A stretch of DNA of 64,000 bases from Escherichia phage vB_EcoM_G4498, in the sequence record NC_054918.1; one strand, 5' to 3'. Positions within the stretch are counted from its first letter, which is position 1. The number at the start of each line of letters is the position of its first letter. This document shows, piece after piece, positions 4,974 to 55,884 of the stretch. The translations under genes and the position numbers were made by a program. The notes beneath the pieces are model-generated. The model ran no database searches, had not been told where the DNA came from, and worked only from the letters and a program-made list of their open reading frames with translations.

Positions 4974-5150
4974 TTACCCTTTAAGTAAGTCGTAAAATCC
5001 GCCATTCACATGCTTAGGGGCAGAGACTAACCGAATAGCAATCCGATGACAATCAGGACATACATCAGTATCTCTTTCAGAAATTTTCTTGATTTTTTCG
5101 TATTCTTTTGCGCAGTCTTTTGATTGACATTTATAATCATAAAGCGGCAT
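4974..5150 (-). CDS. small zinc-ribbon protein, 58 aa (below the ORF-track cutoff)
   Basis: My own translation: MPLYDYKCQSKDCAKEYEKIKKISERDTDVCPDCHRIAIRLVSAPKHVNGGFYDLLKG. It has CxxxxC...CxxC and fills the gap between flanking genes exactly. Confidence 0.6.
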   Translation of the reverse strand: MPLYDYKCQSKDCAKEYEKIKKISERDTDVCPDCHRIAIRLVSAPKHVNGGFYDLLKG

Positions 5151-5152
5151 AA

Positions 5153-5566
5153 TTATTCCTTAAAGTGAGCTTTCAACATCTGATACAAGGACCATGCCTG
5201 TTCATCATTTTCAATAGTAACTTTCATTACAGGGAATTTAGATTGATCAGTTATCGGTGCAGATTCTTCCTGCTCTTCAGCTGCCTGGTATGGATTTTCA
5301 ACTTCATTAAAGAATTCAGCTTCATTCGATGAAAGCCAAATAAAATCTTCATCCAAAATATCTTTACCAGAAGATAGTACTAAATTTCCAGCAAATGACA
5401 TAATTTTAATAGGACGCCCAAGAGCATCCACATCTAAAATTTTAAAAGGATGCATACCTAAACGGCGTGCATAGATTCCGTTATCAGTATGGTCTTTAAT
5501 AAAATTTTCTTGAGCTTGTTTATTTTTAAATTGATACCATTTATTAACTTCAAATTTAATAGCCAT
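5153..5566 (-). CDS. goF: GoF mRNA-metabolism modulator (137 aa)
   Basis: Position after 39.x and size are close to T4 GoF. Recognition is from memory only. Confidence 0.6.
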
Positions 5567-7593: not shown

Positions 7594-7623
7594 ATAGTAC
7601 CACAACTAACCGAGGAAGTAAAC
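7594..7623 (-). promoter_or_regulatory. early promoter
   Basis: GTTTAC-N18-TACTAT upstream of 7066-7566. Confidence 0.65.
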
Positions 7624-15800: not shown

Positions 15801-16451
15801 TTATTTTTCCTTTCTTATGAAGTTTTCTATCATATGTCTATAGCAGATATTAGGATAACCTGCCTTGACAGCTATTTTATTAAATTTTGTGCGCTTAGGT
15901 CTATTATTATAAACCCATAATTCATAAAGCGCATCATAACTATTCCATATTTCTCCTCGCCTAGGATTTGGTAAACCATATCGAGGTGAATTTTTACCGC
16001 TAAATCTTCCTTTTCGGGCTTTACTCATATTAGCCTTGGCTTCATCGGATATAATTTTACCTTTATGAGCTAGACGCATTTTGGCTTTAGTTTCTTCTGG
16101 GGTCTTTTTGCCTTTAATCCATGACGGCTTGCCATATCTAGGATTATTTTCACCCGAGAAAAGAACAGAGTTTTGGATTTTAAGGGTTTCTATTAATCTA
16201 CTTGTTAATTTAACACCTTTATTATATCGCATTAAATTTACAGCATAATGCAATCCTCTCACATCTGGATATATTTTAGTTAATAATCTATGAGCTATAA
16301 AATGCTCACGCGCAGTTAACTCAACAAGATTGTTTTTGTCATCTGCTCCTCCTATACATCTAGGAATTATATGATGGCGTTCTTTATATCCGCCAAGATG
16401 CCGGCATTTAGCTTTTGTAATTAAAGCCGAGTAAATTTTTTGGTAATTCAC
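15801..16451 (-). CDS. free-standing HNH homing endonuclease (Mob-like), 216 aa, GTG start
   Basis: HHIIPR...NLV.LT.REH HNH core. NUMOD3-like repeats (NNPRYGKP, KNSPRYGLP). GTG at 16449-16451 after AAGGA. Confidence 0.85.
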   Translation of the reverse strand: MNYQKIYSALITKAKCRHLGGYKERHHIIPRCIGGADDKNNLVELTAREHFIAHRLLTKIYPDVRGLHYAVNLMRYNKGVKLTSRLIETLKIQNSVLFSGENNPRYGKPSWIKGKKTPEETKAKMRLAHKGKIISDEAKANMSKARKGRFSGKNSPRYGLPNPRRGEIWNSYDALYELWVYNNRPKRTKFNKIAVKAGYPNICYRHMIENFIRKEK

Positions 16452-16521: not shown

Positions 16522-16722
16522 ATGGTACAAAAATTAATGGCACTTGTTAATGCCATAAAAGGTAATAAGAAACGTATAGCTTTTACTATTTCTGCTATGG
16601 TAGGAATTTTACTCTGGAACTTTATTTTATCACCTGTTGCAATTGCACATGGTATTAATATTCCAGTAGTTACTCTTGATACATTCGTAGATTTAGCATT
16701 TGCTTTAGTTGGGTTAATTTAA
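16522..16722 (+). CDS. small two-TM membrane protein, 66 aa, plus strand
   Basis: Strong SD AAGGAGG 4 nt before the ATG and phage-like A/T-ending codons. Two hydrophobic segments. The 3-prime end overlaps the gene 61 stop convergently. Confidence 0.45.
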   Translation: MVQKLMALVNAIKGNKKRIAFTISAMVGILLWNFILSPVAIAHGINIPVVTLDTFVDLAFALVGLI

Positions 16723-17747
16723 ATCTTAGCATATTTAGATAGCCGCATTTTAGCCATCAACCCCTGGGCAATATTATTTTTCATATATTCCATAATTTGT
16801 TCAGGGGTTGCACCTTCCTTTCTAATCATATCATTAACATCTTTTGATTTCCAGGGAGATTTATCCCAAAACATAACCCTTTCTCCTACATCAACTAATT
16901 TAGTCATTCGCTTGATAGTGTCAGGGTGACGAGGTTCATTATCTAAAACCCACACTCGTCTATCTTTAAATGGAACAACTTCTAGGTCTAATTGACCACC
17001 CGTAATAGCTATACCATTTTCAATAAAAAGTGAATCTATAGGTCCTTCTAGAACATATACATCACCATCTTTAACTCGTTCAACACCGTAAATTTTTGTT
17101 GCCTCAGGATAAGCTTTAATGGTGATATATTTTTGAGGAGCATCTTTCTTTAATGCACGTCCTTGAAAAGACTCAGCTTTTCCATTAGCATTATAAATTG
17201 GAATAACAAGACGAGGCTCAGAAATTTCCTTTTTGTATGTTCCCGGTGCTATGCTATTAACTAATTTAGGCCATTCGGTTGTAAACCAAAGATATTTCCA
17301 TTTATCCTTTGGAATACAACGAGCTTTTACATATTTTATAATTGGATGGTCTTCCGCCAGTTTATCTAATCTAACACATGACGGAAGAGATTTAATTATT
17401 TTCTTCTCAGGTTGCTTAGGAAGTTCTTTAGGTTTTTCTACTGGACGACTTTTACCTTTTTCTTTTCTTATTTCAAAAATATACTCACGATATAAATCAG
17501 GTTCAAACTCCTTTAAATATATTCCGATTGGTGCATGATAGTTACAGTTATAACAATGAATATTTCCTTCATTATTATCGCCGTAATACCATCCACGGGC
17601 TTTATTTTGGTCGGTTTTTGAATCTCCACAAACAGGGCATCTAAACCGTAATTTAAAAGTTGAACTATTATTTACTTGTGTGAATTTAGGTAAATGAGCT
17701 AGCGCACGGTATGCAAACTCATTATCAATCCAAGGTATTGATGACAT
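16719..17747 (-). CDS. 61: DNA primase gp61, 342 aa
   Basis: Zinc ribbon CPVCGDS...CYNC plus Toprim. Matches T4 gp61. Confidence 0.95.
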   Translation of the reverse strand: MSSIPWIDNEFAYRALAHLPKFTQVNNSSTFKLRFRCPVCGDSKTDQNKARGWYYGDNNEGNIHCYNCNYHAPIGIYLKEFEPDLYREYIFEIRKEKGKSRPVEKPKELPKQPEKKIIKSLPSCVRLDKLAEDHPIIKYVKARCIPKDKWKYLWFTTEWPKLVNSIAPGTYKKEISEPRLVIPIYNANGKAESFQGRALKKDAPQKYITIKAYPEATKIYGVERVKDGDVYVLEGPIDSLFIENGIAITGGQLDLEVVPFKDRRVWVLDNEPRHPDTIKRMTKLVDVGERVMFWDKSPWKSKDVNDMIRKEGATPEQIMEYMKNNIAQGLMAKMRLSKYAKI

Positions 17748-17749
17748 TT

Positions 17750-17914
17750 TTACTCTTCTTTTTCTTTAGATTCCTCTTTTTTCTTTTTAGGAATCTGTTC
17801 AGGACCTTTATTTACTACAGCGCCTGATGCTGTTCCAGTAGAGATATTTTCAGGATTACCACCTGAATCTCCAGCGACCATATCTTCTTTGATAAATTCT
17901 TTATATGTTTTCAT
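17750..17914 (-). CDS. small protein (61.1 position), 54 aa, with a capsid-targeting-like N-terminus (not in the ORF track)
   Basis: My own translation: MKTYKEFIKEDMVAGDSGGNPENISTGTASGAVVNKGPEQIPKKKKEESKEKEE. Fills the gap exactly. Confidence 0.55.
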   Translation of the reverse strand: MKTYKEFIKEDMVAGDSGGNPENISTGTASGAVVNKGPEQIPKKKKEESKEKEE

Positions 17915-17915
17915 A

Positions 17916-18542
17916 TTAACCTCTATTCATAAAAGCATTAAAAATTTGGTCATCAATAGAAACATTCACTTTAGACTGTTTTTCTGATGGTAATTCATAT
18001 CCACATATTACAATTTTATGATCAATATCAAAATACACAGAAGCAATATGATTAATGATGTTTTCAGTAAAGTCTAAATCAACATCAATATCTTTTTGAC
18101 CACAGCCCAAAGGATAAATAATGCGAGTAATTCGATTATCTTTAACAAAGATTCCACCGATATACTCTGTGCTGCGTTCAAAGTCTACACGCCGACGAAA
18201 TGAAAAATATTCAGGCTCTTTATGAGCTCGGCTCATAGGACACAACGAGTAACTAGAATAAGAGATGTCAAATCCTACGCCTTCAATATGAGCCAAATTA
18301 TCATGATTAAACCAATTATAATCGTACGCCAAGTCCATTAGATTATAATATGTGAAAGGCACCGGATTAACATCACTAGTCGCAAGCATGTAATTAGCAA
18401 CTGCTATAATTTCGTTGTTTTTAACGAATACAAACCGCGATTGATGCGAATGACCTGGACCTGCGTTTTCACGATTAATGATATAACACTGGGCACCTTT
18501 ATATTTGTACGTGTCTTTGCACTTGTGCATTTGATAAAGCAT
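17916..18542 (-). CDS. adfA: gp61.2-position protein, 208 aa (family reported as AdfA, anti-DarTG)
   Basis: Position between 61.1 and sp and size. The assignment to the AdfA family is from memory of the literature, not from alignment. Confidence 0.5.
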   Translation of the reverse strand: MLYQMHKCKDTYKYKGAQCYIINRENAGPGHSHQSRFVFVKNNEIIAVANYMLATSDVNPVPFTYYNLMDLAYDYNWFNHDNLAHIEGVGFDISYSSYSLCPMSRAHKEPEYFSFRRRVDFERSTEYIGGIFVKDNRITRIIYPLGCGQKDIDVDLDFTENIINHIASVYFDIDHKIVICGYELPSEKQSKVNVSIDDQIFNAFMNRG

Positions 18543-18835
18543 TATTCACCTACCACTTCAGCGATGATATTTTTATTATTGAAGTTTTTATCACAATACA
18601 GAACGTAATTATACTGCATTACACCACCAGACTTAAGCTGTTTTTGTACTTCAGCTTTCATTTCAGGGCGATCACGCTCAACGATATTCATAATATCTGC
18701 TTCAATCTGAGTTTCAACCTCAGTCTGATCTGCGGTCATAGACCATTCACACAAATCTTTATCATAACCTGCCATAGCAGGCTGAGCAGCACAAGAAGCC
18801 AAAGCAAAAATTGCAGCAAAAACAAATTTTTTCAT
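18542..18835 (-). CDS. sp: Spackle periplasmic superinfection-exclusion protein, 97 aa
   Basis: Signal peptide MKKFVFAAIFALASCAAQPAMA. The sequence matches my memory of T4 Sp. Confidence 0.9.
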   Translation of the reverse strand: MKKFVFAAIFALASCAAQPAMAGYDKDLCEWSMTADQTEVETQIEADIMNIVERDRPEMKAEVQKQLKSGGVMQYNYVLYCDKNFNNKNIIAEVVGE

Positions 18836-18863
18836 GATAATCTCCTCAGTAGTTTATGTTTAT

Positions 18864-18893
18864 ATAGTATCTCAATTTCCAACAAAAGTAAAC
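18864..18893 (-). promoter_or_regulatory. early promoter
   Basis: GTTTAC-N18-TACTAT upstream of sp. Confidence 0.65.
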
Positions 18894-19147
18894 TATTTTA
18901 TTTCCTCAAGTTCGTTAATCAATAAAAGTTCTCTGACGCTAAAAACAAAGAAAAATGTGTTCCCATCAACCAGAGCATGACCGCTAATAGAACACCCTCT
19001 GCGGAATTTAGAAACTTCACAATCTAGAACTGTAAAGGGTTTTAATCCTATGACTTTAGCTATGCGTCTATTCAGTTCACAACCACTTGCGAATTTTTCC
19101 AAATCTTCTTCTGATTTAAACTGATATTCTCTATTAACTAGCATCAT
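18893..19147 (-). CDS. GoF-like small protein, 84 aa
   Basis: VNREYQFKSEEDLEKF...RRIAKVIGLKPFTVLD aligns with [16 protein letters not shown]...[13 protein letters not shown] of the goF product. It has its own early promoter at 19179-19208. Confidence 0.65.
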   Translation of the reverse strand: MMLVNREYQFKSEEDLEKFASGCELNRRIAKVIGLKPFTVLDCEVSKFRRGCSISGHALVDGNTFFFVFSVRELLLINELEEIK

Positions 19148-19178
19148 TTTCTTTTCTCCGCGATTAGCTGATAGAATT

Positions 19179-19208
19179 ACTATAACACAACTCTATCAGC
19201 TTGTAAAC
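19179..19208 (-). promoter_or_regulatory. early promoter
   Basis: GTTTAC-N18-TATAGT upstream of the GoF-like ORF. Near-duplicate of 19667-19696. Confidence 0.65.
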
Positions 19209-19210
19209 TA

Positions 19211-19453
19211 CTATTTTACTAGCATCAATAACTGTTTCTCTAACTTGACGATTTTACGAAAGTATCTTTTGCATTGGCGAATCTGCCGCTTCGTAGGGCG
19301 CACAGCAAACTTAATAAATTCAACTCGACCAAATGGAGGACTTTCTTCTGCTGGAATATCTAACACCAATTCCCACGTATCTGCAATAAGTGCTTTGAAT
19401 TGAGTATTTTTCCTGACATTATACGGAGTAGGTTTAAATAAAACAATGTGCAT
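19211..19453 (-). CDS. small basic protein, 80 aa, translationally coupled to dmd (61.4/TifA-position candidate)
   Basis: ATG at 19451-19453 after GAGGA, 1 nt past the dmd stop. Basic C-terminus RPTKRQIRQCKRYFRKIVK. Confidence 0.55.
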   Translation of the reverse strand: MHIVLFKPTPYNVRKNTQFKALIADTWELVLDIPAEESPPFGRVEFIKFAVRPTKRQIRQCKRYFRKIVKLEKQLLMLVK

Positions 19454-19454
19454 A

Positions 19455-19637
19455 TTATCCTCGGCAATCCACTTCGCATACTTTCTTGTCATCAATGAAA
19501 GCTTTAACTAATGCTTTATTAACTTCAGCATATTGAGTAGTAGCCCATTGAACGTCGTCTTTCATCATTGTGATTTCTTTAGTAAACATGCTTTCATTCT
19601 TAAACCACCCCATAAAAACTACCTTTACCAATTCCAT
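19455..19637 (-). CDS. dmd: Dmd antitoxin (inhibitor of RnlA/LsoA), 60 aa
   Basis: MELVKVVFMGWFKNESMFTKEITMMKDDVQW... matches T4 Dmd in size and position. Confidence 0.85.
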   Translation of the reverse strand: MELVKVVFMGWFKNESMFTKEITMMKDDVQWATTQYAEVNKALVKAFIDDKKVCEVDCRG

Positions 19638-19666
19638 AACAATCTCCTCATTTAACCAACAAGACT

Positions 19667-19696
19667 ACTATACCATAGTCCTGTCAGCTTGTAAAC
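19667..19696 (-). promoter_or_regulatory. early promoter
   Basis: GTTTAC-N18-TATAGT upstream of dmd. Confidence 0.65.
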
Positions 19697-21123
19697 TAAA
19701 ATTTTAATTCATTTGCCAAAGCATCTAACTGGGCTCGAGTAGATTCGTTTCTTTGATAGCGATTCTGCTCAGCCTGAATCTGCTGTGAACCTGCTACTTC
19801 GTTAACTTCAGTTGGAGTAGAATCTTGCTCAATTTCTACCCATTTTTGATTTCCTTTTTGAACACCCATCAAAAACTTATTCCATTTATTCTTATCACCA
19901 TATCGTGATTTGATTTGCTTAATGAGTTGTTGTTCAGCAGCTGCTAACTCCTCGGTTTCAATGACCGCAAGCATAAAATCAGCTGTTGCTGGAAGACCAG
20001 CAGATTCTGCAATATCGCTCATGTTAACATCAGAAGAATCCCAAGCTTGTTTACCAACCTGCGCTGCAGTCCAAAGAACAGTTTCGGTTTCAACAGCCAG
20101 AGCACGCAATTCCTCTGCAATAGCTTTAACAGTTGTGTAACTATTTTCTGAATAAACTCTAATGCGGCAAGATTTACAAATACCTAGATAGTCGACAATA
20201 ATGATTGTTGGAACAAAATTCTTCTTGAGCTTCAATTCGTTTAAAAGTGATCGAAATGTATTAGCATCTGCTCCACCGGTAGGATACTGTTTAACGATTA
20301 AACGACCGAGAGTAGATTTCTCACGCCATTTTTCCATTTTTCCTTTATACTCAGCGTAAGAAATATGCCCATCATCAATGTCATCAAGAGAAACATCAAG
20401 CATATTAGCATCAATACGCTTAGCACAGACTTCTTCTGCCATTTCCATGGAAATGTAAAGAACGTTATGACCAAGCTGCAAATAATCTGCTGCCAATGAA
20501 CACAATCCTAATGACTTACCAACGTTAACGCCAGCCATTAAAACGTTCAGTGTTCCAGTCTCAGCTCCGCCTTTAGTAATTTTGTTTAGAATTCTGAGTT
20601 TAAATGGAACCTTACGAGCTTTATTCATATAAGATAGCCAACGCGCTTCGTAGTCATCCATCCAGTCATGACCAACGTAGCTATCAAATGAAATTGATAA
20701 TGCTTGCCGCATGATGTCAGGAATAGCACCAACATCCGGCATTTTCTTATTTCGTTTTTCCGGAGGAAGCTCAGCATTAGTTTGAATTTCGATTATTTTA
20801 GACGTAGCATTAAACATCGCCCTTTGCTGAACATATTTTTCTGTTTCTTTTACTAACCAGCTGTGGTCTTCCGGAGAATCAGCCAGTTTTGAAATAAGTG
20901 TTTTTACACCAGAATATTCTGTTTCAGTAAATGAACTATTTTCTAATGCAACATTTAACGCATTAATAGATGGAACGCTATGATACTCATTAACATGAGA
21001 TTTAATTAATTTGAATGTATTTTTAGCTGGACCACTTTCAAAATATTCTGAATCCATATATGGCCAAACTTTTGAAAAATAAGCTTGATCAAATATGAGA
21101 TGAGAAAGAATAATTTCTACCAC
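19696..21123 (-). CDS. 41: replicative DNA helicase gp41, 475 aa
   Basis: DnaB-family Walker A GVNVGKS. Matches T4 gp41. Confidence 0.95.
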   Translation of the reverse strand: MVEIILSHLIFDQAYFSKVWPYMDSEYFESGPAKNTFKLIKSHVNEYHSVPSINALNVALENSSFTETEYSGVKTLISKLADSPEDHSWLVKETEKYVQQRAMFNATSKIIEIQTNAELPPEKRNKKMPDVGAIPDIMRQALSISFDSYVGHDWMDDYEARWLSYMNKARKVPFKLRILNKITKGGAETGTLNVLMAGVNVGKSLGLCSLAADYLQLGHNVLYISMEMAEEVCAKRIDANMLDVSLDDIDDGHISYAEYKGKMEKWREKSTLGRLIVKQYPTGGADANTFRSLLNELKLKKNFVPTIIIVDYLGICKSCRIRVYSENSYTTVKAIAEELRALAVETETVLWTAAQVGKQAWDSSDVNMSDIAESAGLPATADFMLAVIETEELAAAEQQLIKQIKSRYGDKNKWNKFLMGVQKGNQKWVEIEQDSTPTEVNEVAGSQQIQAEQNRYQRNESTRAQLDALANELKF

Positions 21124-55854: not shown

Positions 55855-55884
55855 ACTATACCATAACCTTGCCAACTTGTAAAC
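55855..55884 (-). promoter_or_regulatory. early promoter
   Basis: GTTTAC-N18-TATAGT. Confidence 0.6.

Follow-up and report, generated by a model that had tools for sequence, protein, structure and literature searches.

A predicted stand-alone GoF-type gene on a PeSL-like promoter cassette in the anti-toxin island of a T4-like phage

The interval between genes 41 and 61 of T-even phages has so far yielded three anti-toxin proteins. Srikant et al. 2022 (PMC9391042) proposed the region as an "anti-TA island" (TA, toxin-antitoxin) and named its remaining genes as anti-toxin candidates. Here we analyse this interval in a 64-kb segment of a Tequatrovirus (T4-like) genome, that of Escherichia phage vB_EcoM_G4498 (NC_054918.1), referred to below as the window. 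The window has the same locus and the same three characterised anti-toxin genes, dmd, tifA and adfA, whereas its island differs from the published one (T4, T2, T6 and RB69), which is without gofS, by an additional transcription unit: a promoter cassette and an 84-residue open reading frame (ORF), here named gofS, that lie between tifA and sp.

The additional unit resembles two other described systems. One is the PeSL (promoter-early stem-loop) cassettes, mobile regulatory elements of T4-type phages described as "composite promoter-terminator motifs" and proposed to mediate modular shuffling (Arbiol et al. 2010, PMC2839356; Comeau et al. 2014, PMC4122927). The other is the GoF/MotB.1/Frd.2 family of small proteins (Kim et al. 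2025, PMC12152347). The anti-TA island, PeSL shuffling (PMC4122927) and the GoF fold family (PMC12152347) are already published; what is new here is an uncharacterised, domain-only GoF paralogue that a PeSL-like cassette carries within the known island. Our analysis suggests, with a probability of roughly 0.7, that this PeSL-like promoter-gofS cassette is gained, lost and exchanged by recombination, and that the early product of gofS would bind either RNA or a host factor that targets RNA and would serve host-specific counter-defence or RNA protection.

Exchange of the gofS cassette at the tifA-sp site

Six small ORFs, all on the minus strand, are enclosed by gene 61 (16719-17747) and gene 41 (19696-21123), as a first-pass annotation of the sequence had described. 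The same annotation had contrasted the two ORFs found here between sp and dmd with a single one, 61.4, in T4. This contrast holds, since in T4 (K03113) 61.4 is the sole reading frame that separates dmd from sp, and gofS (18893-19147, minus strand) has no counterpart there.

Comparison of T4, the window, GEP001 and SA20RB reveals four states at this one site. T4 has no cargo between tifA and sp. The window combines a variant tifA tail with the cassette and gofS. GEP001 has a T4-type tifA tail followed by the same cassette and gofS, a further promoter and a 59-residue ORF, and SA20RB has the variant tail with the same cassette directly ahead of the homologous 60-residue ORF, adfA being missing. 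The 59/60-residue ORF (PHROG 37915; L033:1138-1317 in GEP001 and L011:1567-1749 in SA20RB) is an alternative or additional cargo. The junctions between these states fall at AAAATAG/TTTAC and GGAGAA. On the left, DNA alignment places the beginning of the divergence from T4 at 19229, and this left junction lies inside the tifA coding sequence and alters the protein tail. On the right, T4 homology restarts at the -35 element of the sp promoter (18864-18892, minus strand), an early-type promoter (TTTACT, 17 nt, TACTAT) identified by pattern scan, whose sequence is common to T4. A promoter downstream of tifA was also noted by Srikant et al. 2022 (PMC9391042).

Identity of the promoter-plus-gofS module across eight phages is 98.8-100%, whereas in the same eight it is 74.5-98.9% for dmd, 94.7-97.8% for the tifA core, 91.2-99% for sp and 87.6-97% for adfA. 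The far greater uniformity of the module relative to its flanking genes argues for its recent horizontal spread. The first-pass annotation had read the locus as a case of modular insertion, and two observations agree with it: the same promoter carries different cargo elsewhere, and the module is much less diverged than its surroundings. A modular, recombinational origin of the gofS cassette is well supported, and the tifA-sp site, with its four distinct states, offers a clean natural example of promoter-mediated cassette exchange.

The cassette is found in a minority of relatives. A 2-kb query of the locus matched 555 phage records (best identity, 98.8%), 73 of which, or about 13% of Tequatrovirus records, carry the gofS cassette; identity is at least 99% in 71 of the 73, and the cassette is always present in a single copy and always at the tifA-sp site. 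gofS is absent from ~87% of Tequatroviruses, including T4. Distant homologues (53-80% amino acid identity) occur in two other T4-like lineages and are likewise located between genes 41 and 61, so that the reading frame is intact in three lineages and always in the same genomic interval. The RZ-like phages have gofS directly after gene 41. Three related loci (L008-L010) share the order 41, a 253-residue ORF, a promoter, gofS, a 50-residue ORF (not in every case), tifA and sp, with translational coupling through stop and start codons that overlap or abut. There is no dmd in the interval of these three loci, and gofS heads the tifA operon in the place that dmd occupies in T4, an arrangement unlike that of the published island. 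A PHROG scan of the neighbouring unknown ORFs in the related loci returned function-unknown families only. Between gofS and its L010 homologue dN is ~0.15 and synonymous sites are saturated or nearly so, and the resulting ratio of nonsynonymous to synonymous substitution rates (dN/dS) of ~0.06 indicates that gofS is a real gene under purifying selection.

The gofS unit and the dmd-tifA unit are headed by similar PeSL-like cassettes, both on the minus strand and both identified by promoter scan. Cassette 1 (19667-19698; TAGTTTACA, a 17-nt spacer and TG-n-TATAGT) would drive dmd-tifA and cassette 2 (19179-19210) would drive gofS. Near-duplicate cassettes had been pointed out at these places before, and the scan bears this out: the promoters at 19695-19667 and 19207-19179 rank first and second among the sigma-70-type sites of the region, each consisting of TTTACA-17 nt-TATAGT with a TG extension and agreeing with the consensus at 10 of 12 positions. 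The exact 15-mer TAGTTTACAAGCTGA is common to both cassettes and has exactly two occurrences in the window; allowing up to two mismatches, it has three matches, as compared to 0.22 expected by chance. Cassette 2 has 100% identical counterparts in Shfl2, P8, SP1, Ozark and phage 132. Further downstream, a GGAG (Shine-Dalgarno) is located 8 nt before the gofS start codon, an ATG. For cassette 1, an early promoter upstream of T4 dmd has been cited by Srikant et al. 2022 (PMC9391042).

Both cassettes contain a hairpin that overlaps the promoter. The 15-bp hairpin of cassette 1 (19654-19689, minus strand) has a predicted RNA folding energy of -18.6 kcal/mol (z = -4.7) and the 14-bp hairpin of cassette 2 (19166-19201, minus strand) one of -18.0 kcal/mol (z = -3.8), values that were equalled by none of 200 shuffled sequences in either case. 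In each hairpin the 5' arm begins directly downstream of the -35 element, and the loop and 3' arm contain the -10; the hairpin of cassette 1 extends past the -10. The cassette 1 hairpin is kept in T4 and SP1 with G-U/G-C changes; L008 and L010 have an equivalent of the gofS hairpin upstream of their homologues, where both arms have changed. Because pairing there has been preserved through A-U, G-U and G-C exchanges, the comparison points to a function of the gofS hairpin in RNA read in the direction of the gene. A transcript that starts at the cassette promoter is missing the 5' arm, and the hairpin is therefore predicted to be confined to RNA that enters from the upstream unit by read-through. 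The label of terminator was not adopted for the hairpins, since no terminator is predicted in the region; in SA20RB, the equivalent hairpins have been annotated as rho-independent terminators by another group.

Promoter-spanning hairpins are not confined to this locus. They occur at at least seven early-type promoters in the window, with strong examples at 7622, 60910 and 51500 (minus strand), and also at 55883 and 6517 (minus strand). At three of these promoters the Shine-Dalgarno sequence lies within the 3' arm, so that translation would be masked in read-through transcripts but not in those started at the promoter itself.

The two cassettes share several features with the PeSLs described by Arbiol et al. 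2010 (PMC2839356) and Comeau et al. 2014 (PMC4122927). The promoter fits the PST/T4 consensus TTTACW-N17-TAYWAT and is followed by a Shine-Dalgarno sequence and a start codon; the ORFs flanked are small, of unknown function and located in a hyperplastic region; and the cassettes lie exactly at indel or replacement junctions between close relatives. A strong hairpin accompanies each promoter as well, but at another place relative to it than in the published PeSLs. Unlike in PeSLs, one left junction here falls within a coding sequence, that of tifA.

gofS as a relative of the GoF N-terminal domain

Over its entire length, gofS aligns to the first ~90 residues of the GoF protein encoded in the window (31% identity, E 3e-8; BLASTP), and a profile search with gofS retrieves GoF proteins at E ~1e-33. 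This in-genome paralogue, the full-length goF (5153-5566, minus strand; 137 residues), was located by tblastn and BLASTP, and its homologues are annotated 'mRNA metabolism modulator'. gofS itself matches PHROG 2980 ('goF mRNA metabolism modulator', E 1.2e-20). The first-pass annotation had called it a GoF-like ORF with its own promoter and had left it without a family; the homology and the promoter both stand, but the gene is no orphan, as RefSeq already labels it 'goF mRNA metabolism modulator' in RB3, Shfl2, PP01 and other phages.

The predicted structure agrees with the sequence relationship. An AlphaFold2 model of gofS built from 28 sequences (mean predicted local distance difference test score, pLDDT, 90.5) has five strands, with two helices between strands 1 and 2, and displays the bent five-stranded antiparallel beta-sheet of an SH3/LSm-like barrel. 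The closest solved folds are EF-P domain I, IdeR and FeoA, and the closest viral models in a Foldseek search are T4 MotB.1 (P39415) and GoF proteins. Kim et al. 2025 (PMC12152347) reported for GoF the structural neighbours found here for gofS, namely FeoA, IdeR and EF-P/KOW-like domains. The likeness to the GoF/MotB.1/Frd.2 family thus extends from homology with the GoF N-terminal domain to the bent five-stranded barrel and its neighbours, and an early-type promoter precedes gofS as well.

The two proteins differ in architecture, location and distribution. GoF has 134-141 residues with a linker and a C-terminal domain, both of which are absent from gofS, where the protein ends at residue 84, directly after the barrel. 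The GoF gene lies next to gene 39, whereas gofS lies in the 41-61 interval; and GoF is conserved throughout the subfamily, with a full-length goF present in every phage examined, whereas gofS is accessory. We conclude that gofS is, by alignment and predicted fold, a stand-alone paralogue of the GoF N-terminal SH3/LSm-like barrel, in effect a domain-only version of the GoF family.

The short gofS-type proteins, which are 53-98% identical to one another, also share residues of their own. C23, C43, C52 and H57 are invariant in all of them, and full-length GoF has H, V, I/M and G/N, respectively, at these positions. gofS has a Gly at the position aligned with GoF D25. A zinc site formed by the three cysteines and the histidine was considered, but the predicted strand register does not obviously bring the residues together, and no metal site is claimed. 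With regard to position 25, a natural GoF variant (P0088) reads FIKYHTEN, with a Tyr that corresponds to the D25Y change of the laboratory goF mutants that stabilise RNA.

Pfam contains no family that matches gofS or GoF even at E <= 10, and a sequence profile search of solved structures with gofS gave no match at E <= 1. An exhaustive profile search of 1.84 billion representatives returned 16 matches, the genuine distant ones among them being phage proteins that contain the domain once or twice. Several others were vertebrate KRAB/SCAN C2H2 zinc-finger proteins, which aligned in many repeated stretches and, following a Pfam scan, were rejected as repeat-driven false positives.

Possible roles of gofS

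The reading that we favour can be set out as follows. The cassette (18893-19229) comprises an early sigma-70-type promoter with an embedded hairpin, a ribosome-binding site and gofS. Recombination would take place at the short sequences that the units have in common, namely the stop codon/A-tract/-35 stretch (AAAATAG-TTTAC) and the ribosome-binding site (GGAGAA), and through it the cassette may be gained, lost and exchanged among T4-type phages. Such recombination would account for its presence in ~13% of records at the tifA-sp site, its near-identity in diverged phages and the occurrence of other cargo behind the same promoter. Judging from the promoter sequence, gofS would be transcribed by the host RNA polymerase immediately after infection, and the hairpin in the read-through RNA most likely ends or stabilises the dmd-tifA message. 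The product would be small, made early and able to bind either RNA or a host factor that targets RNA, and in this way would protect phage transcripts on particular hosts.

A role in host-specific RNA protection or counter-defence is favoured because gofS is accessory but selected, appears to spread horizontally, is tied to tifA and dmd in three lineages, and belongs to a fold family with links to RNA. Its context is that of an anti-defence gene, with homologues of tifA, dmd and adfA around it and a variable presence among relatives. This island association is the only evidence that bears on function and comes from the neighbours, and it makes gofS a reasonable candidate for a counter-defence gene. 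A search of the literature found no functional study of gofS.

Several points weigh against this view. Nothing computed here ties gofS to any defence system. The neighbours themselves are mixed: Spackle is a superinfection-exclusion protein and not a counter-defence protein, and 61.1 has no assigned function, so the earlier description of the locus as one 'otherwise devoted to defeating host immunity' was overstated. Common ancestry of the carriers may account for part of the high uniformity of the cassette. No role has been demonstrated for wild-type GoF, only the D25Y mutant being known to stabilise an RNA. As for the hairpins, no U-tract follows either of them and a terminator scan of the region found no intrinsic terminator; and the stem-loop of PeSLs is placed just upstream of the promoter in the legend to Fig. 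3 of PMC4122927, whereas it overlaps the promoter here.

The main rival, which we consider doubtful, is that gofS, as GoF may, has a housekeeping-type role in modulating the phage's own mRNA and tunes the stability or processing of transcripts from the 41-61 interval, for example the hairpin-bearing read-through RNAs. The homology of gofS to the GoF N-terminal domain would fit such a role, as would the sole known phenotype of GoF, which concerns gene 41 mRNA levels and RNA stability; gofS invariably lies close downstream of gene 41, which it follows without a gap of other genes in the RZ-like lineage, and the intergenic hairpins are apparently conserved at the RNA level, G-U pairs being tolerated. 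However, the ~87% of Tequatroviruses that do without gofS, T4 included, grow normally, and every phage examined already has the full-length goF. The accessory, horizontally spreading distribution of gofS also fits host-specific adaptation better than core regulation.

A more specific proposal, which we regard as unlikely, is that gofS is a new counter-defence protein in its own right: a minimal LSm/SH3-like barrel that neutralises an RNA-targeting host toxin or defence nuclease, or that shields phage mRNA from it, and that replaces dmd beside tifA in some lineages. If this were true, the GoF/MotB.1/Frd.2 family would gain its first physiological role and the anti-TA island would be extended.

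That gofS is a passenger of little or no benefit, kept only through efficient recombination of the promoter-hairpin module, as its location at indel junctions, its absence from most relatives and the interchangeable cargo behind the same promoter might suggest, is very improbable given the strong purifying selection (dN/dS ~0.06) between lineages with saturated synonymous sites, the frame kept intact at 53-80% amino acid identity in the same interval of three lineages, and the retention of invariant residues that include three Cys and one His.

TifA and the other genes of the interval

The first-pass annotation had left both ORFs between sp and dmd without a secure assignment and had proposed comparing them with T4 gp61.4/TifA. 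The comparison divides them: the 84-residue ORF, gofS, is a real extra cargo gene without a T4 counterpart at the site, and the 80-residue basic ORF (19211-19453, minus strand; isoelectric point 10.3) is, on its sequence, TifA, the ToxN inhibitor known in T4 as gp61.4. It matches Pfam DUF7279 (E 2.1e-20), and its residues 1-76 are 97% identical to the T4 61.4 product. Its start lies 1 nt past the dmd stop codon and is translationally coupled to dmd, as in T4. The PT motif and the basic helix that follows it, described as required for RNA binding (Guegler et al., PMC10853763), are intact, with ...RPTKRQIRQCKRYFRKIVK... kept as in T4. The difference is confined to the tail. Identity ends after ...KLEKQ, where the window variant continues with LLMLVK (80 residues) and T4 TifA with FVTCDYAEILK (85 residues). 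The TifA of RB69, which lacks the C-terminal extension, is a more potent inhibitor (Srikant et al. 2022, PMC9391042). The two ORFs of the earlier description are therefore reduced to one gene, gofS, which appears to be selected, to spread horizontally, to be tied to the island in three lineages and to be linked to the GoF fold family.

Upstream of tifA lies dmd (19455-19637, minus strand; 60 residues), the antitoxin against RnlA/LsoA, which matches the Pfam Dmd family (E 1.6e-46) and is 100% identical in amino acid sequence to T4 Dmd. In phages SP1 (L031:315-506) and 132 (L034:315-506), the dmd allele (63 residues) is only 74.5% identical at the DNA level and its flanks are ~96% identical, a pattern in which dmd itself appears to be mosaic. 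The stop codon of gene 41 (minus strand), the replicative helicase gene according to the ORF list and to the gp41/DnaB-like helicase annotation in matching phage records, adjoins the -35 element of the dmd promoter.

The dmd-tifA operon (19210-19698, minus strand) lies between the two promoter cassettes, which form direct repeats 488 bp apart, with 15 bp matching exactly and 28 of 36 positions matching overall. T4 escapes ToxIN through amplification of dmd-tifA at microhomologies of 6-10 bp (Srikant et al. 2022, PMC9391042). The bracketing repeats would readily lend themselves to amplifying the operon in tandem or to deleting it, and because the perfect repeat TAGTTTACAAGCTGA has 15 bp as compared to 6-10 bp in T4, carrier phages may amplify tifA more readily than T4.

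Downstream of gofS are sp (18542-18835, minus strand), which encodes the 97-residue Spackle protein (Pfam T4_Spackle, E 4.8e-45), and adfA or 61.2 (17916-18542, minus strand), which encodes the 208-residue anti-DarT factor A (Pfam AdfA, E 9.5e-135). The C-terminal part of AdfA is common to two shorter families, PHROG 4122 (118 residues) and PHROG 8539 (144 residues). In related phages, genes of these families (L002:2137-2493; L005:4576-5010 and 5012-5371; L008:3984-4418) either form a tandem with adfA or take its place, which suggests that a set of AdfA-like paralogues is diversifying within the 41-61 interval.

The last of the six ORFs, 61.1 (17750-17914, minus strand; 54 residues), belongs to PHROG 1823 (E 1.1e-32) and is 93-98% identical to gp61.1 of T4 and relatives. 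It matches the C-terminal third of PHROG 2086, a family of 155-residue proteins (L008:4992-5459) that, in other T4-like phages, are encoded at the 61.1 position upstream of gene 61. This gives the T4-type 61.1 the appearance of a remnant or of a C-terminal module that stands alone. Directly downstream of gene 61, a 216-residue ORF (15801-16451, minus strand) contains an HNH-like motif (HHIIPRCIGG...NNL) and repeated N(S/N)PRYG motifs, on account of which it looks like a gene of the homing-endonuclease type.

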